From positions 135,466 to 199,465 of the forward strand of contig JAPPFM010000056.1 in assembly GCA_028821605.1 (NCBI GenBank): DNA of 64,000 bases. The letters are read 5' to 3'. How positions within the stretch are numbered: the stretch's first letter is position 1; each line of letters begins with the position of its first letter. The notes under the pieces are model-generated. The model saw only the letters and a program-made list of their open reading frames with translations, did not search any database and was not told where the DNA came from. Positions 27,481-61,580 of this stretch are shown piece by piece. Source of the DNA: Candidatus Poribacteria bacterium (GTDB lineage: Bacteria; Poribacteria; WGA-4E; WGA-3G). The translations under genes and the position numbers were made by a program.

Positions 27481-28659
27481 ATGAGCACGAATGAATCACA
27501 AGCGAAGGAAACTTACCGCGCGACTGCATTCGCGGATTTCGAACCTGAACTTTCGGCTCCGGGTGCCACACCTGAAAGATTGGCATACTTAAAGGAGCAC
27601 GGCTTTGTCATCATCAACGATTTTGTTGATAACCCGTGGATTCCTATTCTTCGAGAAGCCGGACGGCGTGTTACCGAGGCATGCGCCCCGGAACACGTCT
27701 ACGACAAAATCGACTGTTCAAAGGGTTACGTACATCGTGCAGCGGAAGATGAACCGTGGGCAATCCGGGGACTCATCCATCCTGCTTTCGATGAGCCAAG
27801 TTTCGCCGAATTCCACGGCTCTTCGGATTTCTTGGATTTCATTACCTCATGGTGTCACGGGGTTCAACCTGAGGACCTGACATTTAGTGGCATGCTGCTA
27901 TGGGCGAACCCCCGACGGAACGAGAATGGTCCAAGTTGGCACAGAGACGTGACATGGTGGGGTGATGGAGCAGGCTACTTCTCACAGCGGGAGATCCGTG
28001 GAGATACCCCTGAAGATTATTCAGAAGAGGTGGAGCGGATCCGTTGGAAAGAGATTCAAGAAGGCAACGAGAAGCGAATCACCGAACGGAACGGCGTAAG
28101 CATGTTTTTGGCACTCACAGACGACGAATGCCATGAACTCATCCCTGGTAGCCACCACCGGTGGCGCACTCCGTTTGAACACGATGTCCTACTCCCACAA
28201 TCGATGAAGGATCAAGGTGTTCCGTATACACCGAGCTGGAATAAGAAAGACCCGTTACCTGGTCAGGTCGCCATTCGGCTCAAGCCGGGTGAGGCACTCA
28301 TCCGAAATGGCAACAACATCCATACCGGACACACTGTGCCTGAACGGGAGCGCAACACACTGTCAATTGGTTGGTCGAAATGGTCGGGTGAATTCACTGG
28401 CGAGCCGTCAGTCGCGGACGCACGGAACGCGTGGCAATTGGATCCTGCTGTCCGAGAGGCTTTACCGCACACGTGGATGCAGACGGCGTGGGACCGCTGG
28501 GCGGAAACGCAGAAACTCGGTGAAACACTTGAAGACCGGTATGCTGGTTATGACATCCGGCAGATCAAATCCGGAAAAGTCGTTGGCTGGCGCACTGAAT
28601 TGGAACGTCAAGCCGCTGCAGCCGGTGACGCGTGGGAATCTTTCCAAACCGTTGGCTAA
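27481..28659 (+). CDS. PhyH-like Fe(II)/2OG dioxygenase family protein with C-terminal extension
   Basis: GPSWHRDVTWWGDG and NIHTGHT motifs. 392 aa. Confidence 0.55.
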   Translation: MSTNESQAKETYRATAFADFEPELSAPGATPERLAYLKEHGFVIINDFVDNPWIPILREAGRRVTEACAPEHVYDKIDCSKGYVHRAAEDEPWAIRGLIHPAFDEPSFAEFHGSSDFLDFITSWCHGVQPEDLTFSGMLLWANPRRNENGPSWHRDVTWWGDGAGYFSQREIRGDTPEDYSEEVERIRWKEIQEGNEKRITERNGVSMFLALTDDECHELIPGSHHRWRTPFEHDVLLPQSMKDQGVPYTPSWNKKDPLPGQVAIRLKPGEALIRNGNNIHTGHTVPERERNTLSIGWSKWSGEFTGEPSVADARNAWQLDPAVREALPHTWMQTAWDRWAETQKLGETLEDRYAGYDIRQIKSGKVVGWRTELERQAAAAGDAWESFQTVG

Positions 28660-28777: not shown

Positions 28778-29272
28778 TGCCGATTGGTTACGTCTCGGTC
28801 GTGGGTGTTGTTCACACATTCCCTTTCCCTTTCTATCTCTTTCTTTCCCTTCTTACCGCCCAAATCGCTGAATATAGCAATTTTTTGCGTTTTATCCTAA
28901 ATAGGACTTACGCAGTCTGCTCATTTGTAGCACAAACTTTCCAGTTTGTGTCAGAAAAATGTGTGTTTTTAGGAAAGTTCCGATCTCACAGGACGTGCTA
29001 TGACTACAATCGCGTAAGTTCTGCTAAATTTACACTTACTCACAGTAAAGGGACTTGCAGAGAGTTCTCCGTTTTCTAAAGCCCATGCCGTAAACTCTTA
29101 AATCAAGTTCACGTTAATATTAGCACTTGAGAAAGTAAAGCAAAATAAAACATACTATAGTTGGTTTTCGTTGTCTGATGAAAAATATCAAATAGAAAGC
29201 CAGAAATTAGCAAAACTGAGATGCCTACCGAAAATACGGTCAGAAGTGGGGCTAAAATGGGGGATTCTTAAA

Positions 29273-30466
29273 ATGAAGAACCTAAGCACAATCCTTTGTG
29301 GATTAATCCTGTTCGGGTTACTTGTTTTCATACTAAAAGTTAGTACGCCTGATGTACCAAAACGGATGGTATTCATTCCAGCGGGCGATGGCATGGACGC
29401 GTTCTACATGGATGTCTATGAAGTCACGAACGCAGACTATAAAAAATTCATTGATGCCAATCCTCAGTGGCAAAAAGACAAAGCCTTAATCTCAATTGTA
29501 GGGAATAAATACCTATCCGTTTGGGATAACAATATGTATCCAAAGGGTAAAGCAAATCATCCAGTAGTGAACGTTAGTTGGTTTGCAGCGAAGGCTTATG
29601 CGGAATGGGTTGGCAAAGACTTGCCGACAGACGCACAGTGGGAAAGAGCGGCGCGCGGCACACCGGTAGGGAAGAGATACAACTCCGTTGCATCTATCAC
29701 GTTCGGTTTTCCCGCGGCGCGTGCCACCTTGATAGAGAGGAAATATCCTTGGGGCGATGCTGAACCCCAGAGTAGAGCGAACTATAACCGTTACACACCT
29801 ACGACGGACTTCAGCGATCCGCCTACAAAAGAGGTTGGTAGTTATTTCCCAAACGAATACGGACTCTACGACATGGTAGGTAACGTTGCGGAATGGTGCT
29901 TAGACGGGTTAAATTTTGACGATATCCGTGGTAGGTATCATAGAGTCCGCGGCGGTTCTTGGTTTGACGGTGCCGAGGGTATCCGAATCACGAGGAAAAG
30001 TCAATACCCCGTAGATGGTGCTGTAGCGACGCTGGGTTTTCGTTGCGCGTCGTCAACAGCGGAGACGAATCCAACGACAAAGGTGGCAACTGAGATGGCT
30101 TCTTTTCTCTATGATGAGATGCGTAACCAGTTTGATAACGTATGCTATAGCGTGTCAAAAGGTTATGCTGCACATACTGACCTTAATCTCAAGTTCGCTG
30201 AAATTGTGACCTCCAATACCGGCTATCCTCGTACATTTGGAAAGGAGCTCATCCGTATTTTCCGAGAGGTCAATGCTGAACAGATGGAACCGGACAGCTT
30301 TTCTGAGCGGCTTGCTATCAACCACGATCTGATGCTTAGACTGTGGAGGCTCTATCTTGAGATTCACTTCGAGCACAGTGAGAAGAGTGCTTATGAGAAG
30401 TTACGTCTGTTCAAGGAGAACCTTACGGAAAATATGAACGACATTATTGTGCCAGATAGAAGCTAA
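29273..30466 (+). CDS. formylglycine-generating enzyme (FGE/SUMF1) family protein with N-terminal TM anchor and 130-aa C-terminal extension
   Basis: MVFIPAGDG, FYMDVYEVTNADYKKFI, HPVVNVSWFAAKAYAEWVGKDLPTDAQWERAARG, GLYDMVGNVAEWCLD, RVRGGSWFD, GFRCA. Start placed at MKNLSTILCGLILFGLLVFIL. Confidence 0.7.
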   Translation: MKNLSTILCGLILFGLLVFILKVSTPDVPKRMVFIPAGDGMDAFYMDVYEVTNADYKKFIDANPQWQKDKALISIVGNKYLSVWDNNMYPKGKANHPVVNVSWFAAKAYAEWVGKDLPTDAQWERAARGTPVGKRYNSVASITFGFPAARATLIERKYPWGDAEPQSRANYNRYTPTTDFSDPPTKEVGSYFPNEYGLYDMVGNVAEWCLDGLNFDDIRGRYHRVRGGSWFDGAEGIRITRKSQYPVDGAVATLGFRCASSTAETNPTTKVATEMASFLYDEMRNQFDNVCYSVSKGYAAHTDLNLKFAEIVTSNTGYPRTFGKELIRIFREVNAEQMEPDSFSERLAINHDLMLRLWRLYLEIHFEHSEKSAYEKLRLFKENLTENMNDIIVPDRS

Positions 30467-30481
30467 AAGCACACCATCCGA

Positions 30482-30545
30482 ATAGGCACGGGGTGGAAGT
30501 TACACCCCGCGCCTATCCCATCACTACTCCCTTTCTTTGTTTTAT
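30482..30545 (+). terminator. intrinsic terminator (ataggcacggggtg...caccccgcgcctat followed by T-rich tract)
   Basis: 14-bp stem with one mismatch, then cccatcactactccctttctttgtttt. Confidence 0.5.
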
Positions 30546-30731
30546 CCTCAAAAACCGAAGCGGTCTCCAAATTTTTGCTTGACTTTGCCTTCTGGGTATG
30601 GCATCATAAATTTGGATATGCTCTCTTGCTCACAATACAAATCAACCGGTGCATTATAATTAAACAACAGCCAACTGCATTGCCTAAAAAATTGGCAGGG
30701 GAGGCGCACGAGGTAGGGGAGGCGAATTGTA

Positions 30732-32186
30732 ATGACAGGATTTGAGGAATACAACACTGATGGATTTTATGACGAGATGTTCGCGCCAGATGGGAGTGCC
30801 CGTCCTGCTGCCCAGATGTTGGCAGAGCGGATTGAGAGTTTTCCTGAAGGCGAACTCACGCGTCGCCAAATTGCCGCTGAATATGCGTTGCTCCGAATGG
30901 GCATCACGTTCAACGTCTACGCGGACGAGCAGGGTGTCGAAAAAATCTTTCCGTTCGATCTCATTCCACGAATTATTGATGCCAGTGAATGGGAATGGAT
31001 AGAACGTGGACTCAAACAGCGCATCCAAGCGCTGAACCTATTCATTGACGACGTTTACCACGACCAAAAAATTCTTAAAGACGGTATCGTCCCGGCAGAT
31101 GTGGTGCTTTCATCGGAAAGATACCTACAACCCTGCATCGGTTTAGACCCGCCGCGCGGGATCTGGTGCCATATCACTGGCACAGATTTAGTTCGCGATG
31201 GCGATGGACAAGTTTATGTATTGGAAGATAATCTCGGTTGTCCATCTGGTGTCTCTTATGTCGTGGAAAACCGGCAGTTAATGAAGCGCACCTTTCCGCA
31301 ACTCTTTGGGATGTCGCAAATTCAACCGGTCGAAGATTATCCGAGTCAACTGCTGAATACGCTCCGGTACCTCGTAACCGACAAAATCTTATCTCCTGAA
31401 GTTGCGGTACTAACCCCTGGCGTTTATAACTCCGCATACTTTGAGCACTCCTTTCTGGCGCAGCAGATGGGGGTTGAATTGGTTGAGGGGCGCGATCTCG
31501 TCGTAATGGACGGGTTTGTGCACGCGCGAACGACGAAGGGTTTTGAGCGGGTTGATGTTATCTACCGCCGCATTAACGACGATTTCCTTGACCCGAAAGC
31601 GTTCAAACCGGAATCAATGCTCGGCGTTCCGGGATTGATGGAGGTTTACAAAGCCGGACGTGTCGCTTTGGTTAATGCCCCTGGCACCTGTGTCGCTGAC
31701 GACAAAGTCGTCTGTGCTTTCGTCCCTGAGATCATCAAGTATTATCTCGGTGAAGACATTATCGTCCCAAACGTTCCGACCTATATGTGTTGGAAAGATA
31801 GCGATCAGAAATATGTGCTGGAGCATCTCGACGAACTCGTTGTGAAAGAAGCCAACCAGTCTGGCGGCTATGGAATGCTGATCGGTCCCCACGCAACTAA
31901 AGCAGAACACGAGGAGTTTGCCCGCCGAATCAAAGATAATCCGCGTAATTACATCGCGCAACCGACACTCTCGCTTTCACGTGTGCCGGTGCTTATTGAC
32001 GATCATTTTGAGGGACGGCACGTTGATTTGCGTCCGTTTATCCTTTACGGTGAAGAGATTTACGTCCTCCCAGGTGGATTGACACGGGTCGCACTCAAAA
32101 AGGGTTCGCTTGTCGTCAACTCGTCACAGGGTGGGGGTAGCAAGGATACGTGGGTCTTATCGGGGCCGTCAGGAAAAGGCGCGTAG
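30732..32186 (+). CDS. circularly permuted type-2 ATP-grasp protein (CP_ATPgrasp_2)
   Basis: The N-terminus FEEYNTDGFYDEMFAPDGSARP...GITFNVY and the overall pattern are typical of this family. SD ggggagg upstream. Confidence 0.8.
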   Translation: MTGFEEYNTDGFYDEMFAPDGSARPAAQMLAERIESFPEGELTRRQIAAEYALLRMGITFNVYADEQGVEKIFPFDLIPRIIDASEWEWIERGLKQRIQALNLFIDDVYHDQKILKDGIVPADVVLSSERYLQPCIGLDPPRGIWCHITGTDLVRDGDGQVYVLEDNLGCPSGVSYVVENRQLMKRTFPQLFGMSQIQPVEDYPSQLLNTLRYLVTDKILSPEVAVLTPGVYNSAYFEHSFLAQQMGVELVEGRDLVVMDGFVHARTTKGFERVDVIYRRINDDFLDPKAFKPESMLGVPGLMEVYKAGRVALVNAPGTCVADDKVVCAFVPEIIKYYLGEDIIVPNVPTYMCWKDSDQKYVLEHLDELVVKEANQSGGYGMLIGPHATKAEHEEFARRIKDNPRNYIAQPTLSLSRVPVLIDDHFEGRHVDLRPFILYGEEIYVLPGGLTRVALKKGSLVVNSSQGGGSKDTWVLSGPSGKGA

Positions 32187-32282
32187 AGGCGAGATTCCTT
32201 CGCCTCTACACAAAAGCGCGAAAAGCCAAACAACGTGCGGCTTGGATTCTCTAACGGATCGGTGTTCATAAAATCTATCTGA

Positions 32283-32306
32283 CTGACCGCAAGGAAAATT
32301 AAAAAT
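32283..32306 (+). promoter_or_regulatory. copy 1 of conserved leader motif (C)TGACCGCAAGGAAAATTAAAAAT immediately 5' of the alpha-E gene
   Basis: Shares about 22-27 nt with the leaders at 33418-33450 and about 40683-40711. Confidence 0.45.
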
Positions 32307-33293
32307 ATGCTGAGTCGCGTTGCTGAATCAATTTATTGGATGAGTCGCTACATTGAACGTGCCGAGAATGTCGCCCGTTTTGTCGATGTCAACCTGCGTT
32401 TAATCCTTGATGCACCCGTCGGTATGCAGGCACAGTGGGAGCCTCTTGTTGCGACCACAGGCGATGATGAAGTGTTTGCTGAGCGTTACGGAGAGGCATC
32501 ACGTGAAGCCGTCATCCGATTTTTAGCGTTTGACACTGAAAATCCAAATTCAATTGTCTCTTGCTTGCGGGCTGGTCGAGAAAACGCGCGGTCGATACGC
32601 GAAAATATATCGTCAGAGATGTGGGAGCAGCTGAACGATGCCTACTTACTGGTAGCAAACACTTCCGAACAGTGGGCGATGGCAGAACCGCATGAATTCT
32701 TTACAGAGATCAAACTCGCATCACACCTCTTCATGGGACTCACAGATAATATCATGTCCCATAGCGAAGGGTGGCACTTCTGTCAGTTGGGACGTTTGAT
32801 TGAACGCGCGGACAAAACCTCGAGAATCGTTGATGTTAAATATTTTATTCTCCTTCCGTCTATCTGGGATGTGGACACACCTTTTGACGACATTCAATGG
32901 GGGGCACTTTTACACTCTGCCAGCGGTTTTGAAATGTATCGACGTACCTATGGACTCATCTCTCCGGACGATGTCGTCGCTTTTTTGCTGTTAGATCGTG
33001 AATTTCCACGGTCGGTTCTCTACTGTCTCTCCAAGGCGGAGGAGTCACTGCACGCGATATCCGGTACCCCGTTGGAAACCTTCTCCAATCCAGCAGAGCA
33101 GCGTTTGGGGCAGCTCCGTTCCGAATTTGCGTATGCCCAAGTCAAACAGGTACTCACGTCGGGTTTGCATGAATTCCTTGATGCTTTCCAAACCAAGCTG
33201 AACTTAGTCGGTGATGATATTTACAAGACATTTTTTGCCTTGCGACCTGTCAATGGAGAACCCGCTGCGGAACAGGAACAGTCTCAGTTGTGA
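32307..33293 (+). CDS. alpha-E domain protein (partner of CP ATP-grasp)
   Basis: The N-terminus LSRVAESIYWMSRYIERAENVARFVDVN is the alpha-E signature. Confidence 0.8.
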   Translation: MLSRVAESIYWMSRYIERAENVARFVDVNLRLILDAPVGMQAQWEPLVATTGDDEVFAERYGEASREAVIRFLAFDTENPNSIVSCLRAGRENARSIRENISSEMWEQLNDAYLLVANTSEQWAMAEPHEFFTEIKLASHLFMGLTDNIMSHSEGWHFCQLGRLIERADKTSRIVDVKYFILLPSIWDVDTPFDDIQWGALLHSASGFEMYRRTYGLISPDDVVAFLLLDREFPRSVLYCLSKAEESLHAISGTPLETFSNPAEQRLGQLRSEFAYAQVKQVLTSGLHEFLDAFQTKLNLVGDDIYKTFFALRPVNGEPAAEQEQSQL

Positions 33294-33417
33294 GTTATTT
33301 AAAGAGAAGGGGCGGGAAACCTGTCCCCTACGGAGCATCTAATTCTCCTCTTAAACGGAAAGCAAAGCATCGCGCCGGGACGGATATACGGAGTGGGATC
33401 TTATCAGTAAAATTCCG

Positions 33418-33450
33418 CTAACCGAACCGCAAGGAAATATTAAAAAAACA
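33418..33450 (+). promoter_or_regulatory. copy 2 of conserved leader motif CTAACCGAACCGCAAGGAAATATTAAAAAAA
   Basis: Immediately 5' of the long transglutaminase gene. Confidence 0.45.
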
Positions 33451-33453
33451 GAT

Positions 33454-36400
33454 ATGTCAATTCGTGTAGGAATCAACCACAAATCTCTATATCGCTATGA
33501 CCGGCTCGTCGGCTTATCGCCACATATTTTTCGGTTGAGACCCGCGGTCCACTGTCGCACACCGATTGAGGCGTATTCGCTCAAAATTGAACCCGAAGAA
33601 CACTTCATTAATTGGCAGCAAGATCCGTTTGGCAATTATCAAGCCCGTGTCGTTTTTCTACAACCCACATACGCCTTGTCGGTTGAGGTCGATCTTATTG
33701 CGGATATGACCGTCATCAATCCCTTCGATTTTTTCCTTGAAGCGAGTGCTGAACATTACCCATTTTTCTATGAGGCGCAGCTCAAACAAGAACTCACACC
33801 GTTCCTTGAAGTCAAAGAAAACGGACCCTTGTTGACAGCGTGGTTGGCAGATATTCCTCGGACGAAGAAGAAATTCAATGACTTCCTTGTTGACATCAAC
33901 AGATCTTTGCGGGAACATATAAAATACACGATTCGGATGGAACCAGGGGTCCAGTCCTGCGAAGAGACTTTAGGAAAGCAAATCGGTTCATGCCGGGACA
34001 CAGGGTGGCTGCTTGTCCAGATTTTGCGACATCTCGGTTTGGCTGCCCGTTTTGTTTCTGGTTACCTTGTACAACTTGTCGCTGATCAAAAACCTGTGAC
34101 AGGTCCCGCCGGTCCTCCGCAGGACTTCACCGATTTGCACGCTTGGTGCGAGGTTTACGCACCCGGAGCAGGGTGGATAGGATTAGATCCGACATCCGGC
34201 TTACTTGCAGGAGAAGGACATATTCCATTGGCGTGTGTGCCAGACCCGGTGAGTGCCGCGCCTGTCACTGGCTACACAGATCCATGCCAAACAGAATTTA
34301 CCTATAGCAACACTGTCCAACGTATCTACGAAGACCCGCGCGTGACGAAACCCTACACGGAAACACAGTGGGCTGATATTAATGCGCTCGGTCAACAGGT
34401 TGATGAGGATATAATTCAGAATGATATCCGATTGACAATGGGCGGTGAACCTACTTTCGTGTCAGTGGATGACACAGAGGGTGCGGAATGGGATACGGAA
34501 GCGGATAGCCCGAGGAAAAGAGAATTAGGTGCCGGACTCTTACAACGTTTACGCGATAGTTTCGGACCCAGCGGTGCACTCTACTACGGACAAGGGAAAT
34601 GGTATCCGGGTGAACCTTTACCGCGATGGAAATTCGGGTGTTTTTGGCGCAAGGACGGGGTGCCCGTGTGGCGGAACGATAAACTTCTCGCTGAACCTCA
34701 CAAGGATTATGGCTTCGGTTCCCGAGACGCAGAGCGATTTACACATCGCCTCGCCGAATGCTTGAAACTCTCACCAGACCAGATAGTTCCAGCTTATGAA
34801 GATGCACTCTTTTTCCTTTGGACAGAAGACAGGCTTCCGGTTAACATTAATCCGCTTGAATTTGACTTCAAGGAGGCTTCCGAACGACATCGTCTCGCGC
34901 AACTTCTGCAAACAGAGACACTCGGTGAACCCGTTGGCTACGCCCTACCGTTACGCTGGGATCTTGTGGACGATACTTGGGAGAGTTGTGTATGGAATTT
35001 CCGGGGTGGACAGATGTTCTTAACGCCCGGTGATTCACCCATCGGGTTGCGTCTGCCACTGGAGTCTATACAATGGGTGCCACCGAAACAGCGGGAGATG
35101 GTTTATGAGCGCGACCCGCTTGAACCGCGTGAGGAGAGTTTAGATACAGATAGTGAAGACAGACTCCCAACAGAGAACAGAGAGGCGGAAGCAATTTTTC
35201 ACACTGCCTTATGTATTGAACCGCGCGAGGGACGATTGCACATTTTTATTCCACCCTTGACGCACTTAGAGCACTATCTGCGACTCCTTGAAGCAATTGA
35301 AGCGACCGCTGAAGCCTTGGGTATGCCGGTAATTCTTGAAGGATATGAGGTCCCATACGATTCCCGAATTGAATCTCTGAATGTGACACCCGACCCAGGG
35401 GTCATTGAGGTAAACATTCATCCAGCGAAAAATTGGGATGAGGTGGTACATAACACCACAACGCTCTATGCACAAGCAAGGTTAGCTGGACTTAGTGCTG
35501 AAAAATTCATGTTGGATGGTCGGCATACTGGCACGGGAGGCGGCAATCATATTGTGATTGGTGGAGCCGCCCCGGCGGATAGCCCGTTTTTGCGAAAGCC
35601 TCACTTACTGCGAAGCCTTATCACCTATTGGCAGCATCATCCCGCTTTGTCTTATCTCTTTTCCGGTACATTCATCGGACCGACGAGTCAAGCTCCTCGC
35701 GTGGATGAGGGGCGCGATGAACAACTCTATGAACTTGAGGTCGCTTTTGAGCAGATGCCTGATGAAATGGGTGATGAGGAAGATGTTCCACCTTGGCTGG
35801 TAGACCGGCTGCTGAGACACCTCATGGTAGATCTCACCGGTAATACGCATCGTGCGGAGTTCTGTATTGATAAACTTTATTCACCCAATGCAGCGAGTAG
35901 AAGACTCGGATTGCTTGAACTACGGGCTTTTGAGATGCCGCCGCACGCCCAGATGAGTGTCGTGCAGATGCTGTTGGTGCGCGCATTAATCGCCAAATTC
36001 TGGAAGACACCCTACAAAGGCAAACTGGTACGCTGGGGGACAGAATTACACGATCGCTTCATGCTCCACCACTACGTCCACGCCGATATACAGGAGGTCA
36101 TTACTGAACTCCAAGCAGCAGGCTATTCGTTTGAAATGGCGTGGCTTGAACCGTTTTTTGAATTCCGTTTTCCGAAGTTGGGCACTACAAATATACAAGA
36201 TATTGAATTGGAACTAAGGATGGCAATTGAACCGTGGCATGTACTCGGTGAGGAGGTAACCCGGACGGGGACCTCGCGTTTCGTTGATTCTTCTGTTGAG
36301 CGGCTCCAAGTGAAGGTCAGTGGATTGACAGATTCCCGCTACATCGTCACATGCAATGGACGACGCTTGATACTTCACAACACTGGCACACATGGAGAAT

Positions 36401-36777
36401 ATGTCGGTGGGGTGCGCTATCGTGCGTGGCAACCGCCATCAGCGTTGCATCCTACAATCGGTGTCCACTCACCGCTCGTGTTTGACATCATCGACACATG
36501 GAACGGGCGCGCAATTGGTGGCTGTACCTATCACGTTTCCCATCCGGGTGGGCGACACTATGACACCTTCCCAGTCAACGCCTACGAGGCGGAAGCCCGA
36601 CGTGTAAGTCGGTTCGGGGCTGATGGACATACACCAGGCGTTATTCAACCGCGCCCGTCAGCACCTGCAGCTGGACATTTTCTGGCTGAGGGGAATCCGC
36701 CTGGTCCGATAGATGTCCCACCAGAAGAGACAAATGCTGAATATCCTTACACTTTAGATCTCCGCCGAATTCTTTAG
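33454..36777 (+). CDS. long transglutaminase-family protein (Bact_transglu_N + transglutaminase core + DUF2126-like C-terminal region; Rv2566-like)
   Basis: N-terminus MSIRVGINHKSLYRYDRLVGLSPHIFRLRPA. Cys-containing core GSCRDTGWLLVQILRHLGLAARFVSGYL. 1107 aa. Confidence 0.8.
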   Translation: MSIRVGINHKSLYRYDRLVGLSPHIFRLRPAVHCRTPIEAYSLKIEPEEHFINWQQDPFGNYQARVVFLQPTYALSVEVDLIADMTVINPFDFFLEASAEHYPFFYEAQLKQELTPFLEVKENGPLLTAWLADIPRTKKKFNDFLVDINRSLREHIKYTIRMEPGVQSCEETLGKQIGSCRDTGWLLVQILRHLGLAARFVSGYLVQLVADQKPVTGPAGPPQDFTDLHAWCEVYAPGAGWIGLDPTSGLLAGEGHIPLACVPDPVSAAPVTGYTDPCQTEFTYSNTVQRIYEDPRVTKPYTETQWADINALGQQVDEDIIQNDIRLTMGGEPTFVSVDDTEGAEWDTEADSPRKRELGAGLLQRLRDSFGPSGALYYGQGKWYPGEPLPRWKFGCFWRKDGVPVWRNDKLLAEPHKDYGFGSRDAERFTHRLAECLKLSPDQIVPAYEDALFFLWTEDRLPVNINPLEFDFKEASERHRLAQLLQTETLGEPVGYALPLRWDLVDDTWESCVWNFRGGQMFLTPGDSPIGLRLPLESIQWVPPKQREMVYERDPLEPREESLDTDSEDRLPTENREAEAIFHTALCIEPREGRLHIFIPPLTHLEHYLRLLEAIEATAEALGMPVILEGYEVPYDSRIESLNVTPDPGVIEVNIHPAKNWDEVVHNTTTLYAQARLAGLSAEKFMLDGRHTGTGGGNHIVIGGAAPADSPFLRKPHLLRSLITYWQHHPALSYLFSGTFIGPTSQAPRVDEGRDEQLYELEVAFEQMPDEMGDEEDVPPWLVDRLLRHLMVDLTGNTHRAEFCIDKLYSPNAASRRLGLLELRAFEMPPHAQMSVVQMLLVRALIAKFWKTPYKGKLVRWGTELHDRFMLHHYVHADIQEVITELQAAGYSFEMAWLEPFFEFRFPKLGTTNIQDIELELRMAIEPWHVLGEEVTRTGTSRFVDSSVERLQVKVSGLTDSRYIVTCNGRRLILHNTGTHGEYVGGVRYRAWQPPSALHPTIGVHSPLVFDIIDTWNGRAIGGCTYHVSHPGGRHYDTFPVNAYEAEARRVSRFGADGHTPGVIQPRPSAPAAGHFLAEGNPPGPIDVPPEETNAEYPYTLDLRRIL

Positions 36778-36778
36778 G

Positions 36779-36843
36779 GGTTATCGGTCATCGGTTAAAG
36801 AGGTAGTTGATTTTACAAAACCACCTCTTAACTGACAACTAAT
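36779..36843. repeat. short member of MITE-like palindromic element family (arms GTTATCGGTCATCGGTTAAAGAGGT / ACCTCTTAACTGACAACTAAT)
   Basis: Inverted arms around an 18-nt centre, between the transglutaminase stop and the next ATG. Confidence 0.55.
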
Positions 36844-36860
36844 TGGATAAAGACAAAGAA

Positions 36861-39587
36861 ATGCAACGCGCAGATGTAAAAGATTGGACGGTAATCGGTG
36901 ATAGTTATAACACCATCGAATCGTCCCGTGGACGTACAGGCAATGTTCCCGGTAAGCAGATCGATGAGATGTTGGGTGCGGATAGACAAATAAATCCGCA
37001 CTGGCACGCCTTCATGCAGGCACTCGACACGTTAGGACTCGCGGAGATGGAATCTCGCGACAAAGAGGTGCAACGTCTGCTTCGAGAGAACGGTGTCACC
37101 TACGTCTTACACGGGGAACAGCAGGGACATCGCCCGTGGGAATTAGATCCCATTCCACTAATTATCTCAAAAATAGATTGGGAAACGATCTCTGACGGAC
37201 TTACACAACGAGCGGAGCTGCTAAACCTAATTTTGGCGGATCTCTATGGTGAGCGAACCTTAATCAAAGATGGGTTGATACCACCAGAAGTGATTTATGC
37301 GCATGCTGGATTTTTGCGAGCGTGTGTCGGGCTTGTTCCGTTTGGATTCCCTTTCCTCTTGAGTTATGCCGCCGATTTGGCGCGCGGACCGGACGGCGAA
37401 ATGTGGATACTCGGTGATCGGGCACAGGCACCATCAGGTGCAGGCTACGCGCTCGAAAATCGCACCGCCCTCGCGCGCGCACTACCGAACCTCTTTGGTG
37501 AAGTCGGCGTTCATCGACTCTCTTTTTTCTTCCGCGCACTACAAAACAGCGTCGTGGACCTACAACACCAACTTGAAACTGCTTCCCGTATTGCGCCGCA
37601 TCAAACAGACAACCCACAGGTCGTTGTACTGACCCCTGGTCCCCTCAACGAAACTTATTTTGAACACGCGTATCTCGCAAACTACCTCGGTTACACCTTA
37701 GTCCAAGGTGATGACTTGACGGTGTGGGATGGGCGCGTTTGGTTGAAGTCGCTTGATGGCTTGCGCCCTGTCGATATTATTTTGCGCCGAGTGGATGATG
37801 TTTTTTGTGATCCGTTGGAACTCCGACAGGATTCAAGACTTGGGGTCGCAGGTTTGCTGGAAGCGATTCGACAGGGAAACGTGGTTGTGATAAATCCGCC
37901 GGGCAGCGGTGTTTTAGAAAATCCGGGCTTGATGCCGTTCCTGCCGAACATCGCAAAACGGTTGTTGGGTGAAGACCTACGTCTCCCCTCTGTCGCAACA
38001 TGGTGGTGTGGGCAACCGAAGCAGCGCGACTATGTGTTGGCAAACCTTAAAAAGTTAGTCGTCAAACCTATTCACCGTCAACCGGGCGGACGACCCCTGT
38101 TTGGAAGTGAACTCGATAGTAGTCAACTTGATGCACTTCGCGCTCGGATTAATGCCAAACCGCATCTCTATGTCGGGCAGGAGCATGTTCACTTCTCCAC
38201 AACACCCTCGCTGATTGAAGGGAAACTTGAACCCCGCCGTGCGATTCTTCGTAGTTTTTTGTTCGCAGAGAGAGATGGCTACACCGTGATGCCAGGTGGG
38301 CTTACCCGTTGTGCAGGCGAGAAGGGTGAACTGACAATCTCAATCCAAGATGGTGGAGTTAGTAAAGACACCTGGGTACTTGCCTCTGAACCTGAACCGC
38401 ATGTCAGTTTATGGCAGCGACGTATCACCGAGGTGATGGGTCCTGCTTCTACGAGTCCGGCTGGATTGTCGAGTCGTGCAGCTGAGAATCTGTTCTGGGT
38501 AGGTCGCTATGCGGAACGGGCAGAGGGACAAGCGCGGCTCCTGCGGATTATGTTGAATAAGGTCAAGATGGGTAGGATGGGCTTGGAGACTTCCCACTTA
38601 GCACAAGGACTACCTTCCGCGCTCTTTACGGAGACCTTCGGTGACGATGAAAGGGAAGTATCGGAACTCGCGTATCTCCACAGCATGCTCCGCTCCCTGA
38701 CCGGTTTAACTTCATCGCACCCGGGTTTCGTCAGAAAAGACGAACAGTCGTTAGAAGATGAGCTTCTTTCCATCATGCTGGACGTGGAAAACACCGGCAG
38801 CTTGGTGTCTACGCTTCAGGCACTTCTCACCGCGGCTTACGCAGTCAGAGACCGCTGGTCTACCGACACATGGCGTGTGATGAACGGCATTGAAGATCTA
38901 TGTGCTGCCCTTGAAAAAAGCGTTCCCGGAGATGGAGATGCAAGTCCACAGATATTGACGGACCTCGTGCTGCAAGAAGCGGAATTAGCCTCACTGGATC
39001 AACTCATGATCTTTCTTTCAGCACTGAGTGGGCTTAATGCCGAAAACATGACGCAAACGATCGGTTGGATTAGTTTGGATATGGGACGGCGTATTGAACG
39101 CGCACTGCTTCTCATGGTGCTTTGCCGTTCGAGTCTTGTCGCCGTTCAGGACGACTGGGTTGAATATATGTTACTTGAATCTGTCCTTGCTGCCGCCGAG
39201 AGCCTGATCACTTACCGCAGCCGCTATCGTACAACACTCCACTTTCCAACTGTCTTAGAGTTGCTACTTCTTGACGAGAACAACCCGCGCTCGCTCTTAT
39301 ATCAGTTGAAACGGCTTGAGGAACAGATACGTATCCTCCCAAGGGAAAAACTCGGTTACCGGCTTAGCGAGGAGGAACAACTCATTCTGGAGGCTTTAAC
39401 GCAGTTGCAGCTTTCTAATACAATTGACCTCGCCGAGCGTTCGGAGCACACAACACAACGTAAGGGGTTAGAAAAACTCCTTGTCCGCCTTGCACAGATA
39501 CTGGTTGACATTTCCGATGTCCTCACGCAGACCTATTTTAGCCACGTCCAAAGACCGCAGCAGTTGATTACAACCGATAACCTTTAG
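36861..39587 (+). CDS. CP type-2 ATP-grasp fused to alpha-E domain (Rv2567-like)
   Basis: The N-terminal half parallels ORF 30732 (IDEMLGADRQINPHW...). The C-terminal half carries AENLFWVGRYAERAEGQARLLRIML (alpha-E). 36843 is an alternative start. Confidence 0.75.
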   Translation: MQRADVKDWTVIGDSYNTIESSRGRTGNVPGKQIDEMLGADRQINPHWHAFMQALDTLGLAEMESRDKEVQRLLRENGVTYVLHGEQQGHRPWELDPIPLIISKIDWETISDGLTQRAELLNLILADLYGERTLIKDGLIPPEVIYAHAGFLRACVGLVPFGFPFLLSYAADLARGPDGEMWILGDRAQAPSGAGYALENRTALARALPNLFGEVGVHRLSFFFRALQNSVVDLQHQLETASRIAPHQTDNPQVVVLTPGPLNETYFEHAYLANYLGYTLVQGDDLTVWDGRVWLKSLDGLRPVDIILRRVDDVFCDPLELRQDSRLGVAGLLEAIRQGNVVVINPPGSGVLENPGLMPFLPNIAKRLLGEDLRLPSVATWWCGQPKQRDYVLANLKKLVVKPIHRQPGGRPLFGSELDSSQLDALRARINAKPHLYVGQEHVHFSTTPSLIEGKLEPRRAILRSFLFAERDGYTVMPGGLTRCAGEKGELTISIQDGGVSKDTWVLASEPEPHVSLWQRRITEVMGPASTSPAGLSSRAAENLFWVGRYAERAEGQARLLRIMLNKVKMGRMGLETSHLAQGLPSALFTETFGDDEREVSELAYLHSMLRSLTGLTSSHPGFVRKDEQSLEDELLSIMLDVENTGSLVSTLQALLTAAYAVRDRWSTDTWRVMNGIEDLCAALEKSVPGDGDASPQILTDLVLQEAELASLDQLMIFLSALSGLNAENMTQTIGWISLDMGRRIERALLLMVLCRSSLVAVQDDWVEYMLLESVLAAAESLITYRSRYRTTLHFPTVLELLLLDENNPRSLLYQLKRLEEQIRILPREKLGYRLSEEEQLILEALTQLQLSNTIDLAERSEHTTQRKGLEKLLVRLAQILVDISDVLTQTYFSHVQRPQQLITTDNL

Positions 39588-39626
39588 TCCCGGGGAGCAC
39601 CTCACAGTCTCCATAGGATTACTGCG

Positions 39627-40508
39627 ATGAATTACAAGATCGTCCATAAAACTGAATACAGCTATACCCATCCCGTGAACCTCTGCTATAACGAGGCGCG
39701 TTTGAGTCCCCGGAGTTTTGCTCATCAGGATTGTAGCGAGAGTCAGTTCGTTGTGGACCCCGAACCTAAAGAGTGCCGAGAACGTCAGGATTTCTTTGGA
39801 AACACCGTTTACTATTTCACAATCCAGCAGCCTCATAATCAACTCACCGTTAGGGTTACGAGTCGTGTGAACGTCAAAGACAGAGAGATGCAACTGAATT
39901 TCGCCAAGCACCTCACTTGGGAGGAGGTGCGACAGCAGTTGCAAACGGATCAGAATTCGGGAATTCTGGAGATGCGGCAATATGTTCTTGACTCTCCAAT
40001 GGTTCCGATGATGCCCGAACTCCACGCTTATGCTGAAAAGTCGTTTACCAAAAGAAAACCGCTGCTCGAAGCTGTTAACGATTTGACCACTCGTCTCTAC
40101 ACCGATTTTACCTACGATCCGGGCTTCACGACAATCGCAACACCGTTGGCTGATGTCATAGAGCATCGTCGGGGTGTTTGTCAAGATTTTGCGCACCTCG
40201 GTATCGGGTGTCTACGTGCGTTGGGGCTTGCTGCGCGTTACGTCAGCGGCTATATTGAGACTGTCCCGCCACCGGATCAGGAGCCGTTAGCGGGTGCCGA
40301 TGCCTCCCATGCGTGGTTTTCTGTTTATCTCCCGCAGCTTGGCTGGGTAGATTTCGATCCGACAAATAACCAGATACCAGCAGATCAGCACATCACAATC
40401 GCATGGGGAAGAGACTATGCGGACGTAACGCCGCTGAAGGGTGTTGTCTTTGGGAGTGGCACACATGAATTATCTGTCTCGGTGGATTGTAAACGGGAAA
40501 ATTTTTAA
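39627..40508 (+). CDS. transglutaminase-family protein (Bact_transglu_N + core; Rv2569c-like)
   Basis: MNYKIVHKTEYSYTHPVNLCYNEARLSPRS, RGVCQDFAHLGIGCLRALGLAARYVSGY, HAW...DPTN. Confidence 0.8.
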   Translation: MNYKIVHKTEYSYTHPVNLCYNEARLSPRSFAHQDCSESQFVVDPEPKECRERQDFFGNTVYYFTIQQPHNQLTVRVTSRVNVKDREMQLNFAKHLTWEEVRQQLQTDQNSGILEMRQYVLDSPMVPMMPELHAYAEKSFTKRKPLLEAVNDLTTRLYTDFTYDPGFTTIATPLADVIEHRRGVCQDFAHLGIGCLRALGLAARYVSGYIETVPPPDQEPLAGADASHAWFSVYLPQLGWVDFDPTNNQIPADQHITIAWGRDYADVTPLKGVVFGSGTHELSVSVDCKRENF

Positions 40509-40521
40509 CCAGTCGCATGCT

Positions 40522-40640
40522 GGTTATCAGTTTTCAGTTCGGTTTTTCTGCGAAAAACCTTTCAGTTTTCAGAAAGAGACTTTGGAATTATCCAAAACCT
40601 CTTGTAACTGACGACTGACAGCTGATAACTGAAAACTATT
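40522..40640. repeat. MITE-like palindromic element copy (TIR GGTTATCAGTTTTCAGTTCGG ... CTGACGACTGACAGCTGATAACTGAAAACTATT)
   Basis: Inverted terminal arms. The right end is identical over about 30 nt to the copy at 44430-44459. Confidence 0.6.
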
Positions 40641-40682
40641 AAAGCGGATCTACGGAGAGGAACGCGAAAATCACCAAGACCC

Positions 40683-40711
40683 CTAACCGAACCGCAAGGA
40701 AAATTAAAATA
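40683..40711 (+). promoter_or_regulatory. copy 3 of conserved leader motif CTAACCGAACCGCAAGGAAAATTAAAATA
   Basis: Immediately 5' of the MazG-like gene. Confidence 0.45.
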
Positions 40712-40996
40712 ATGACAATTGAAGCGTTTCAGAAGCAAATTGAAGCTATCTATTACACGCGCGATGCTGAGCGCGGCGTACCACTAACCTTTACATGGTT
40801 CGTTGAAGAGGTCGGCGAATTGGCGAAGGAAATCCGCAAACAGCCGCAGGACATAGAACGGCTGCGAGAGGAATTCGCCGATGTTTTTGCATGGCTCGCC
40901 ACGTTAGCGAGCCTGCTCGGTATTTCCTTAGAAGATGCCGCGCAAATCTACGCAGCGGGCTGCCCGAAATGCAAAGATACGCCCTGCGACTGTTAA
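40712..40996 (+). CDS. MazG-like nucleotide pyrophosphohydrolase domain small protein with C-terminal CPKC...C.C motif
   Basis: EEVGELAKE ... EEFADVFAWL matches the MazG NTP-PPase helical core. 94 aa. Confidence 0.55.
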   Translation: MTIEAFQKQIEAIYYTRDAERGVPLTFTWFVEEVGELAKEIRKQPQDIERLREEFADVFAWLATLASLLGISLEDAAQIYAAGCPKCKDTPCDC

Positions 40997-41010
40997 CTCG
41001 CGTGGTGGAC

Positions 41011-42282
41011 TTAATTTCCATTCAAAAACCGATCGAAGTTACCGCCGAACAGGTTGTTGACATCCCGCTCAATCTCTGCCGAAGTCGGTGCCCACCCGAC
41101 ATCGAGAAGCGTTTGATATTTCTCTACCAAAACGTCCGCGATAATCTGACGCGAGTGTTTCCACTTATAGACAAGCTGATCCAAAATTCGTGCATCGGAA
41201 TGCTGTGGGATAACACTCAAACCGAGCAGTTCAATCCGTTCTCGTGTAATCTCCTCAATGACGCTCGGATTGTTCATAAACCACCAACATCCGAATATCA
41301 TCAAATTCTTGAATTTCCGCCCAATCACACACAATTCATGCTGGTTCTCGCGAGACAGCAGGGTAACGAGAAACTTATTGTCAGGATTTTCACGGAGTAG
41401 CGTTTCCAGACTCGTCAGATCCGCTTTCCCACTTCCGTCACCTGCCATCTGAAGTTGTGGGTTAACGGCGCGTTTCACGCCAATCATCAGCGCGAACGGA
41501 ACGTTAAATTCACGCGAAATCGGTAGTATGCAGTTGTCAAAGAGCCTTCCAAGGACACCATCCTCAGGGTATTGGAAATCCGGTGGGAGGGAGACCGCCA
41601 TATATTTCGGGTTCATTCGTTGAATCCATGTTTCCAAAAATCTGCGGACTTCCTTGTAAGTCTTCTCTGTTGATAGATCAGGATCAACATCATAGCCGAG
41701 ACCGAGAAGGTGATCATAACCGACTTCTTGGTAAGTGTTGATGAGGACATCCATCCGAAGTGCCGCTTCAAAGCGCGTGTCACCCGTGTCACCAGATTGC
41801 CAGACCGGTGCTTCTGCCGAATCAAAAGGATCGTTCGTCATCACCACTTTAGAGACTTTTGCGCGTTCAAAAACAGTGTCAATAAATGCCTCAACGGTGG
41901 TATCCGCAAAGTAGTCGCGGTAGTCCTGTAGATTGCGAGAACCGACATCTAACCCCAATTCATTTAAAGCCGTCACAACCCCTCGGCACGCCTCACTCAC
42001 CGGTGAGTTCTCAATAAAAAGCGTCTGCCAGATGAGATCTGCTTGTTCCGTCTTTGTCATCGCCCAGAACTGCTGATATGAGATATCCGATTTGCGGAAG
42101 ACTTCAGCGATAAGGTAGTGATAGGTAAGCAATTCATCTATACCCCATAACAACAAGTCACCGAAGGGCGGACTAAAGAGGTGTGTGTGAATATCTGTGA
42201 TGTTTTGCGTGTCAACAGCGTCAAAAACAGCGGTTTTCAACTGTTCTGTGGTAGCAAGTGTCTGTGTTTGATTCATGTTCAT
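41011..42282 (-). CDS. uxaC: glucuronate (uronate) isomerase family protein
   Basis: ITDIHTHLFSPPF aligns with UxaC PIFDYHCHLPP. The C-terminal FGCWWFMNN...DARILDQLVYKW...NLFGGNFDRF aligns with E. coli UxaC FGSGWWFND...DSRSFLSYTRHEYFRR...NICFNNARDYF. Confidence 0.6.
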   Translation of the reverse strand: MNMNQTQTLATTEQLKTAVFDAVDTQNITDIHTHLFSPPFGDLLLWGIDELLTYHYLIAEVFRKSDISYQQFWAMTKTEQADLIWQTLFIENSPVSEACRGVVTALNELGLDVGSRNLQDYRDYFADTTVEAFIDTVFERAKVSKVVMTNDPFDSAEAPVWQSGDTGDTRFEAALRMDVLINTYQEVGYDHLLGLGYDVDPDLSTEKTYKEVRRFLETWIQRMNPKYMAVSLPPDFQYPEDGVLGRLFDNCILPISREFNVPFALMIGVKRAVNPQLQMAGDGSGKADLTSLETLLRENPDNKFLVTLLSRENQHELCVIGRKFKNLMIFGCWWFMNNPSVIEEITRERIELLGLSVIPQHSDARILDQLVYKWKHSRQIIADVLVEKYQTLLDVGWAPTSAEIERDVNNLFGGNFDRFLNGN

Positions 42283-42385
42283 TTAACCCTCCAGATTCTG
42301 AAAAAAATAATTAAAAAAAACGGACGTTGACACCTTCCAACTCCCTTTGAACGAACTCGCCGCAGTCCTTCATTGAAACGTTGGA

Positions 42386-43387
42386 TCATAAAATAGAGTC
42401 AAACGGCGGATACTCCAATCCCCACTGTTCCCTAACAGTATCCATGGTCTTCATGATGGATAGAGACTCATCCAGCGGCATCACACGGCTTTCGAGTCTC
42501 CGTTCTCGGAGGCAGTTTATAACCTCAATCACTTGGTTTTCAAAGCCATTTGCGATGAACGGTATCTTGATGTGTACGGGATCTTTTCCAGTCCGAATGA
42601 GCGTCGCAGAAGTCGCTTGCCAGAATTCGGGAATATGTATTGATCCTTCGGTTCCGATGATGCGTGCTTCCTTTGAGGTTTCGGTTCTGATAGCACAGAA
42701 TAAATTGGCTATCTGTCCAGCGTCATAGCCTAACAGGATAGACGCTTGTTCGTCCACGTTGGTTGCTCCGATGTGTGCCAGACTGGTGATCTTAGATGGT
42801 GCACCGAATACCATATAGGCAAGCGCGACCGTATAAACGCCAACGTCCAAAAGCCCACTGCCCCCTAACTTTGGATTGAACAATCTACCTTCAAGGACTT
42901 CGGTACTCAGCGTTTTTCGAGATCCGTGATCCGCTGTCAGCAAACGCGGTTCGCCTATGGCACCCTCAGCCAACCATTCCCGAACTTTAACGATTATGGG
43001 AAGAAAGCGGGTCCACATGGCTTCCATCAGAAATTGCTGGCTTTCTCGAGCGCATGCTATCAGTTCCTCTGCCTGCCCTGCGTCCACAGTGAGAGGCTTT
43101 TCACATAAAACCGCTTTCCCTGCTTCCAGACACAGCATCGCACACTCCTTGTGAAAAGGGTGCGGCGTTGCCACATAGATAACGTCCACTTCAGGATCGT
43201 TCGCCAATTCGATGTAACTGCCGTGTCTATATGGAATGTCAAACGTGTCTGCAAATGTGTTGGCTCTCTGGGGATCGCGTGAACCGACAGCGACAATCTC
43301 AGTGTCAGGAACCGCTTTCAGTCCAGTGGCGAATTTATGTGCAATACCACCGGGACCGAGTATACCCCACCTGATCTTCTTCGGCAT
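42386..43387 (-). CDS. Gfo/Idh/MocA family oxidoreductase
   Basis: IRWGILGPGGIAHKF Rossmann motif; LCEKPL. Confidence 0.8.
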   Translation of the reverse strand: MPKKIRWGILGPGGIAHKFATGLKAVPDTEIVAVGSRDPQRANTFADTFDIPYRHGSYIELANDPEVDVIYVATPHPFHKECAMLCLEAGKAVLCEKPLTVDAGQAEELIACARESQQFLMEAMWTRFLPIIVKVREWLAEGAIGEPRLLTADHGSRKTLSTEVLEGRLFNPKLGGSGLLDVGVYTVALAYMVFGAPSKITSLAHIGATNVDEQASILLGYDAGQIANLFCAIRTETSKEARIIGTEGSIHIPEFWQATSATLIRTGKDPVHIKIPFIANGFENQVIEVINCLRERRLESRVMPLDESLSIMKTMDTVREQWGLEYPPFDSIL

Positions 43388-44318: not shown

Positions 44319-44459
44319 GGTTATCAGTTACCAGTTATCGGTTGTCGGTTAAGAGGGTGTTTGGTAACAATTCCCCAACTTCGGGTACTCCAGAAGGAGG
44401 TAAATCGTTACAAATTCCCTCTTTAACTGATAACTGACGACTGACAACTGAAAACTATT
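44319..44459. repeat. MITE-like palindromic element copy (GGTTATCAGTTACCAGTTATCGGTTGTCGGTTAAGAGGG ... CCCTCTTTAACTGATAACTGACGACTGACAACTGAAAACTATT)
   Basis: Long inverted terminal repeats, inserted between tpiA and secG. The right arm overlaps the last 12 codons and the stop of tpiA. Confidence 0.65.
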
Positions 44460-54738: not shown

Positions 54739-54860
54739 AGTTATCGGTTTGCCTCGCAGTGAGAGTTATCAGTTTTCAGTCCGAGACGCTTTGTGGCAGT
54801 AACACAATTTGTACCTGCCACAAGAAGTTAACTGACAACCGATAACTGATGACTGATAAC
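54739..54860. repeat. MITE-like palindromic element copy with internal TTGTGGCAG...CTGCCACAA hairpin
   Basis: Arms GAGTTATCGGTTTGCC...GAGAGTTATCAGTTTTCAGTC and GTTAACTGACAACCGATAACTGATGACTGATAAC, between aspS and the Uma2 gene. Confidence 0.6.
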
Positions 54861-61488: not shown

Positions 61489-61580
61489 TCTCGGTTATCA
61501 GTTGTCAGTTAAGCCTTGTGGCAGTTGTACGTTACATGACTTCCACAACCCTCACTTTAACCTAAAACTGATAACTGAAA
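61489..61580. repeat. MITE-like palindromic element copy (CGGTTATCAGTTGTCAGTTAAG ... CTGATAACTGAAAG) with TTGTGGCAG...CCACAA core
   Basis: Lies between the stop of the giant gene and the transporter gene. Its arms match the family consensus. Confidence 0.6.

Follow-up and report, generated by a model that had tools for sequence, protein, structure and literature searches.

A cluster of five genes (designated G1 to G5) and an adjoining MazG gene (G6) were analysed in a 64-kb stretch of DNA, hereafter the window, from a sponge-associated Candidatus Poribacteria genome. The locus is an ordinary copy of a widespread, anciently assembled five-gene cluster, which comprises three ligases (G1, the C-terminal part of G3 and the N-terminal part of G4), two alpha-E domains and two thiol-enzyme domains of the transglutaminase (TGase)-like type. 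Taken as a whole, it is on balance best explained as the standard Poribacteria copy of a cytoplasmic cluster that builds and trims amide bonds, with MazG unrelated to it. The class occurs in Proteobacteria, Bacteroidota, Planctomycetota, Nitrospirota, Verrucomicrobiota, Actinobacteria and Poribacteria, and was reportedly described computationally by Valas & Bourne 2008 and, according to papers citing it, by Iyer et al. 2009. The first-pass annotation of this DNA had regarded the locus as unusual on account of its split and fused ligase sets and its MazG gene; the joint occurrence of the two sets is common, and the MazG gene is coincidental.

All six open reading frames (ORFs) lie on the + strand, and the domains named for them in the first-pass annotation are borne out by Pfam. 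The models PF14403 and PF04168 back the circularly permuted (CP) ATP-grasp and alpha-E assignments with E-values of 1e-105 to 1e-166 (2.3e-65 for the alpha-E domain of G4), and PF08379 and PF01841 match in G3 and G5. No NCBIfam model matches any of the six proteins. G1 (30732–32186; 484 aa) is a stand-alone CP type-2 ATP-grasp ligase, which matches CP_ATPgrasp_2 (PF14403) over its full length (E 3.3e-166) and PDB entry 3N6X with an E-value of 2.4e-172, and shares 52–71% identity with its orthologues in other phyla. G2 (32307–33293; 328 aa) is a stand-alone alpha-E protein (PF04168; E 1.2e-105), for which a sequence search found no solved structural relative. Both domains are fused in G4 (36861–39587; 908 aa), with the CP-ATP-grasp domain at nt 37155–38315 (CP_ATPgrasp_2; E 2.1e-149; 3N6X, E 1.7e-83) and the alpha-E domain at nt 38466–39539. 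Each alpha-E domain carries two ERA motifs, at residues 17 and 166 of G2 and at residues 558 and 752 of G4 as numbered from the TTG at 36843. This TTG is the longest-ORF start of G4, but the ATG at 36861 is preferred, as the Poribacteria orthologues start at the equivalent Met-Gln and tblastn matches begin at query residues 6–12. G5 (39627–40508; 293 aa) is a short transglutaminase-like protein with Bact_transglu_N (E 4.1e-28) and Transglut_core (E 1.4e-19) domains, an intact triad (Cys185, His228 and Asp244) and a match to PDB entry 3ISR (E 3.4e-18).

G3 (33454–36777; about 1100 aa) had been named a long TGase in the first-pass annotation, which holds for its N-terminal part but overlooks a third ligase. 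The N-terminal part (33454–34278) consists of Bact_transglu_N (E 4.4e-23) and a transglutaminase-like papain-fold core (Transglut_core; E 1.2e-14), whose triad Cys180, His229 and Asp245 is intact and invariant across 54 G3 homologues. The C-terminal part (34279–36777) is an 826-aa DUF2126 domain (1301 bits, residues 276–1104), which makes up three quarters of the protein and is assigned to the carboxylate-amine ligases of the glutamine synthetase (GS)/glutamate-cysteine ligase (GCL)/PafA-Dop fold. PDB sequence searches and Foldseek with G3 matched the TGase part alone; the TGase-like domains of both G3 and G5 have fold matches to 3ISR. In the fold comparison of DUF2126, gamma-glutamylmethylamide synthetase scored 12.7, followed by Dop (10.9), the YbdK-like protein 1TT4 (10.8), PafA (10.6) and glutamate-cysteine ligases (8.1–10.7). 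The closest matches are small-molecule ligases, namely glutamine synthetases, gamma-glutamylmethylamide synthetase and glutamate-cysteine ligases. This comparison, made with a predicted structure, confirms at the fold level that DUF2126 is a ligase of the glutamine synthetase/GCS2/PafA type, and independently supports what Iyer et al. 2008 (PMC2588565) had stated on the basis of profiles. No internal duplication of DUF2126 is detectable by hhalign of residues 276–580 against 581–1107 (probability 0.6%). The kinship with Rv2566 of Mycobacterium tuberculosis proposed in the first-pass annotation is sound, as PMC2588565 describes Rv2566 as a fusion of a TGase with a carboxylate-amine ligase, the same architecture as in G3.

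G3 is the most conserved component of the cluster, with 57–68% full-length identity to other phyla, compared with about 40–50% for G4 and 31–61% for G2. An exhaustive search of 50%-identity clusters yielded 2633 cluster representatives related to G3 at E≤1e-30, and a scan of one genome per species yielded at least 596 loci with a G3 relative, the best-scoring of which are metagenome-assembled genomes of Poribacteria. The best 80 loci were mapped with the six window proteins. Near-identical relatives of G3, G4 and G6 are present in Candidatus Poribacteria assemblies, and the locus alone is of little importance, being a typical copy of a cluster for which public Poribacteria genomes already carry annotations. 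The real gap is the class itself, with three ligases and two thiol enzymes across a wide range of phyla and, in some lineages, ties to the proteasome ancestor Anbu and to nitrogen limitation.

The gene order of the window reads ligase, alpha-E and TGase, then fused ligase::alpha-E and TGase, and the contrast between a split and a fused set is real. On this order the first-pass annotation had based two tandem copies of one three-gene module, with fusion or fission in one copy and MazG recruited as an unusual partner, a history that is now highly improbable. The paralogues within the window share only 35% (ATP-grasp), 27% (alpha-E) and 27% (TGase) identity, and each is far closer to its orthologues in other phyla. 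A phylogeny of 37 G1-type and 53 G4-type ATP-grasp sequences, drawn from the window and the 80 loci of other species, shows each type as a clade of its own across phyla (reciprocal monophyly), with a median identity of 35% between the types versus 60% within the G1 type and 52% within the G4 type. The duplication is therefore older than the divergence of the sampled phyla, and the split and fused ATP-grasp/alpha-E sets are, judged by their sequences, ancient paralogues and not the products of a recent tandem duplication.

The arrangement of the genes in other species also speaks against two equivalent copies. Architectures were counted in 51 of the 80 loci, all from other species and with 8 kb or more of flanking sequence on each side of G3; as the 80 loci are those most similar to the Poribacteria G3, the proportions describe a similarity-biased sample and not a census. 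All five genes lie within 10 kb in 21 of these loci, while 16 have G3 with G4-G5, seven have G1-G2 with G3, and seven have G3 alone. The exact order G1>G2>G3>G4>G5 recurs in 10 loci (two from Poribacteria and eight from delta- or gammaproteobacteria); loci with this order include L032, L040, L065 and L076, from Marinobacterium, Cellvibrionaceae or Halioglobus, and the arrangement can hence not be called unusual. G2 directly follows G1 in every surveyed locus containing G2, and G5 is directly 3' of G4 on the same strand in every surveyed locus containing both, but the two pairs may be upstream, downstream, divergent or convergent with respect to G3. These fixed pairs in varied placement point to the natural units [G1-G2], [G3] and [G4-G5], with G3 as the hub. 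G3 is thus found alone, next to one of the pairs or together with both of them, and contains an extra ligase, so that the two supposed copies are not equivalent, and the corrected unit structure replaces the description of the cluster as two equal three-gene modules. The analysis thereby adds a G3 hub with two detachable ligase pairs, the fold-level support for DUF2126 as a GS/PafA-type ligase, and the removal of MazG as a false lead.

M. tuberculosis presumably carries the same units in separate places. The commonest core in the locus survey, G3>G4>G5, corresponds to Rv2566-Rv2567-Rv2569c, where Rv2567 is taken to be a fused CP-ATP-grasp::alpha-E protein and Rv2569c a G5-type short TGase, with gene order and architectures as in G3-G4-G5. 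Rv2411c-Rv2410c is assumed to be the M. tuberculosis equivalent of G1-G2, located elsewhere with a short TGase of its own, whereas G1-G2 immediately precedes G3-G4-G5 in the window.

G6 (40712–40996; 94 aa) is a small MazG-type NTP pyrophosphohydrolase (Pfam MazG, PF03819; E 1.7e-9; 38.3 bits versus a cut-off of 22), which aligns with PDB entry 1VMG (SSO3215) over 75 residues (E 4.5e-16). It contains the metal-binding motifs ExxE...ExxD (E33vgE36 and E54faD57) shared with the SSO3215-type small MazG proteins, but differs from them in its Cys-rich C-terminal tail. This tail (CPKCKDTPCDC; residues 84–94, 40961–40993) has four cysteines in 11 residues and could be a zinc knuckle. As a partner of the cluster, MazG has some points in its favour: in two Poribacteria loci (L001 and L002) it follows G5 on the same strand at a distance of only 70 nt and 26 nt, respectively, and in the window genome it shares a leader motif with G2 and G3. 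However, the whole neighbourhood of L001 and L002 is syntenic with the window, and the presence of MazG there is therefore no independent evidence. MazG adjoins the cluster in Poribacteria only, and none of the other 78 fetched loci, just one of which is from Poribacteria, contains it even at E≤1. In another Poribacteria genome (L088/L089), a MazG gene with 81% identity keeps the same chromosomal position, beside the same downstream block, which encodes a 428-aa protein, SecG, triose-phosphate isomerase (TIM) and GAPDH, with a lactonase gene upstream and no G1–G5 gene within 6 kb, which indicates that MazG belongs to this housekeeping block. More distant MazG homologues have unrelated surroundings, either downstream of a citrate synthase gene or as a solitary gene beside a PhyH gene. 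In addition, a palindromic, terminator-like element separates G5 from MazG in the window. MazG is accordingly judged from its genomic contexts to be most probably an unrelated housekeeping bystander and no part of the ligase/TGase system, and its proposed partnership reduces to lineage-specific synteny.

Enzymes of the ATP-grasp and GS folds work by converting a carboxylate into an acyl-phosphate, which is then coupled to an amine; TGase-like enzymes of the papain fold act on amide bonds by hydrolysis or transfer, with a thioester intermediate. By analogy, the three ligases of the cluster would spend ATP on such an acyl-phosphate activation and link the carboxylate to an amine, giving an amide or isopeptide bond on a peptide or protein, possibly as gamma-glutamyl-type additions. 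The alpha-E domains may act as obligatory partners of the ligases in substrate binding or regulation, and the bonds made by the ligases would be open to hydrolysis or transfer by the two transglutaminase-like domains with their Cys-His-Asp triads, so that both activities together could form a write-and-erase or build-and-trim cycle. Such a cycle would be cytoplasmic, as no signal peptide and no transmembrane or hydrophobic segment is present in any of the six proteins. In other lineages it could be coupled to the Anbu proteasome homologue and induced by nitrogen limitation.

Among related known systems is the Anbu operon, which consists of CP-ATP-grasp, alpha-E, transglutaminase and Anbu genes. 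The features of this type of module are present in the window, namely CP-ATP-grasp ligases (G1 and G4), adjacent or fused alpha-E domains with ER motifs, and TGase Cys-His-Asp triads (G3 and G5); G1-G2 match the first two genes of the operon, and a TGase domain follows them. Unlike in the Anbu operon, this TGase is part of the giant G3 fusion and not a short protein, a second ligase/alpha-E/TGase set is present, and no Anbu gene occurs in the 64 kb. Among related loci, clustering of flanking ORFs revealed an Anbu-like protein of about 250 aa (N-terminus MTYCIA) in 19 of the 80 (L005, L007, L012–L014, L016, L018, L021, L027, L037, L039, L047, L050, L054, L063, L064, L066, L068 and L072), encoded immediately downstream of G5 or G2 or immediately upstream of G3. 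Its proteasome-subunit match is weak (E 4.9e-4, below the Pfam cut-off), and it is taken as Anbu because of its genomic context. A second peptidase, a Zn-ribbon + Peptidase_Mx zinc metallopeptidase (E 1.7e-106), adjoins G3 in eight of the 80 loci, from Bacteroidota (Chitinophagales; L025, L028, L031, L038, L041, L046 and L058) and one gammaproteobacterium (Thiohalomonadales; L016). A ParA/MinD-like ATPase of about 235 aa is encoded between G5 and Anbu in eight loci, mostly of Methylococcales, and no mention of such a partner was found in the Anbu papers examined.

Peptides or proteins are the most likely substrates of the proposed build-and-trim cycle, as related loci recruit Anbu-like and Peptidase_Mx peptidases and the accessory domains are large. 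A serious rival, possible rather than likely, assigns the cluster to small-molecule metabolism, in which a low-molecular-weight amide would be the product of the ligases and the substrate of the thiol amidases. Candidates for this amide are a gamma-glutamyl-amine, a thiol-polyamine conjugate of the glutathionylspermidine kind or a short nitrogen-storage peptide of non-ribosomal origin. The rival agrees with the small-molecule ligases among the closest fold matches of DUF2126, with the name 'putative glutathionylspermidine synthase' given by its depositors to the G1 homologue 3N6X, with the lack of a Pup-like ORF at the locus (likewise in PMC2588565), and with the induction of the related Anbu operon under nitrogen limitation, where it was the most induced gene set of Pseudomonas putida (PMC3235984). 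On the other hand, Anbu-like and Peptidase_Mx peptidases, which act on polypeptides, recur in related loci, the large alpha-E and Bact_transglu_N domains would fit macromolecular substrate recognition better, and lysates with Rv2567 and Rv2411c did not make GABA (gamma-aminobutyric acid)-trehalose, a very narrow test of one amide (bioRxiv 10.64898/2026.04.15.718621).

A precedent for such a domain combination exists in Escherichia coli, whose glutathionylspermidine synthetase/amidase (Gss) unites a papain-like thiol amidase and an ATP-dependent amide ligase in one polypeptide. G3 resembles Gss in joining a thiol-enzyme domain to a ligase, but its ligase has the GS fold and not the ATP-grasp fold, and its amidase is of the TGase and not the CHAP type.

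A further, doubtful elaboration of the peptide/protein reading sees G3 as the hub of a protein-marking machine, where the three ligases would build tags of amino acids or short peptides (e.g. gamma-glutamyl chains), the TGase-like domains would trim them, and Anbu-containing lineages would hand the tagged proteins to Anbu. If true, this would be a pupylation- or ubiquitin-like pathway across many bacterial phyla, and the strong conservation of G3 (57–68% over 1100 residues) would reflect many simultaneous protein contacts. As no Pup-like ORF is found in the spacers, any tag would consist of amino acids or of a product encoded elsewhere. The likeness to PafA/Dop pupylation is confined to working logic and implies no membership. 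The cluster spacers contain no Pup-like ORF, the eraser would be a papain-fold domain instead of a second ligase-fold enzyme, and there is no similarity at the sequence level.

The least probable explanation considers the TGase-like proteins as secreted general proteases and the ligases as unrelated neighbours. It derives from Rv2569c, reported as a secreted serine-type protease that in recombinant form cleaved E-cadherin, casein and fibronectin in vitro (PMC11081392). Against it, G3 and G5 possess no signal peptide or hydrophobic segment, and G5 directly follows G4 wherever both occur, in free-living and symbiotic bacteria of many phyla. Moreover, the Rv2569c activity responded to serine-protease inhibitors but not to E-64 or N-ethylmaleimide (PMC11081392), a profile at odds with the conserved Cys-His-Asp fold, and the reported activity may not be the native one.

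Several observations weigh against the preferred reading of a build-and-trim cycle acting on peptides or proteins. The window contains neither an Anbu gene, as searched by tblastn with the Anbu-like proteins of six related loci, nor a Peptidase_Mx gene, and no Pup-like or conserved ORF of at least 20 aa is present in the cluster spacers. For the whole cluster type, ATP hydrolysis by one ATP-grasp protein is the sole published activity, seen as the release of orthophosphate from ATP by the Yersinia Anbu-operon enzyme (PMC6376114), and co-expression and pull-down of Anbu-operon proteins gave no stable complexes (PMC6376114, PMC5666114). The predicted G3 model is of moderate confidence (predicted local distance difference test (pLDDT) 68.7), and some of its best conserved loops score less than pLDDT 50, which makes the active-site geometry uncertain. 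The G4 model is poor (pLDDT 37, predicted template modelling score 0.25), as the alignment was too shallow with all 120 listed homologues being Poribacteria at ≥80% identity, and the role of the alpha-E domain stays conjectural. The bias of the locus sample and the leader motif common to G2, G3 and MazG, a weak hint of co-regulation, count in the same direction. The statement of the first-pass annotation that the module has no experimentally established function agrees with the searchable literature, in which no papers were retrieved for 'DUF2126' and nothing functional under the Pfam/COG identifiers or the M. tuberculosis locus tags.

The cluster spacers are not conserved among Poribacteria. 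A candidate sigma-70-type promoter (30579–30607, +), identified by consensus scan only, is located in the 265-nt spacer upstream of G1 and reads TTGACT, 17 nt and TG-n-CATCAT, with 9/12 consensus matches and an extended -10 TG. A sigma-54 promoter was discarded, as the upstream TGGCAT lacks, judged by eye, the GG-N10-GC spacing. A GGAGG Shine-Dalgarno sequence also lies upstream of G1. The 120-nt spacer between G1 and G2 includes a 13-bp hairpin with seven G-C pairs (32180–32212), which overlaps the G1 stop codon; this spacer measures only about 10–20 nt in the Poribacteria loci L001–L003, and the window therefore carries an insertion there. No RNA family was found by Rfam at E≤1 over 29000–42500.

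The leader motif CTAACCGAACCGCAAGGAAA[AT]ATTAAAA (20–28 nt, +) is found just 5' of the starts of G3 (33418–33445), G2 (32286–32305) and MazG (40683–40710), and these three matches, all at this locus, are the only ones in the 64 kb, versus 0.02 expected. It contains the Shine-Dalgarno sequence AAGGA, and may be a local repeat or a strong ribosome-binding site, perhaps copied locally, or alternatively a shared site of translational control. L001, L003 and L088 lack the full 20-nt motif, while L002 keeps only its 3' part before G2 and MazG, and the leader-bearing spacers of the window fold no better than usual (z -0.4 to +0.3). With this partial or missing conservation and ordinary folding, the motif was rejected as evidence for co-regulation of MazG.

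The 203-nt spacer between G5 and MazG contains a palindromic heptamer-repeat element (40521–40637; 117 nt) with a minimum free energy of -47.7 kcal/mol (z -5.0), which is a possible terminator or attenuator at the 3' boundary of the cluster; two terminator-like hairpins are called at 40506–40559. The element is absent from L001 and L002. It belongs to a family of intergenic palindromes of about 90–130 nt, with further members at 44322–44449, 54764–54856 and 61491–61578, whose arms are heptamer runs (GTTATCAGTTTTCAG... in one arm and AACTGAYAACTGAC... in the other) that enclose a variable centre pairing with itself. The predicted folds of all four are much more stable than those of shuffled sequence (z -3.4 to -6.1), and the heptamer pattern has 21 matches versus 3.3 expected. 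One-armed heptamer runs occur at 36830–36842 and 50042–50061, and similar runs are present in the spacers of L002. These elements look like repetitive extragenic palindromic (REP) or miniature inverted-repeat transposable element (MITE)-type repeats of this Poribacteria lineage.

The neighbours of the cluster are ordinary. Downstream, the opposite strand encodes a 423-aa protein, a GFO/IDH/MocA oxidoreductase, SecG, triose-phosphate isomerase and GAPDH, and upstream are genes for an ECF sigma factor, a 392-aa protein and an FGE-sulfatase-domain protein. The ECF-type sigma factor (25729–27288, -) has a C-terminal extension of about 330 aa without Pfam match, and the gene for the 392-aa protein (27481–28659, +), which has a weak PhyH match, is divergent from the sigma factor gene and syntenic with the cluster in L001 and L002.

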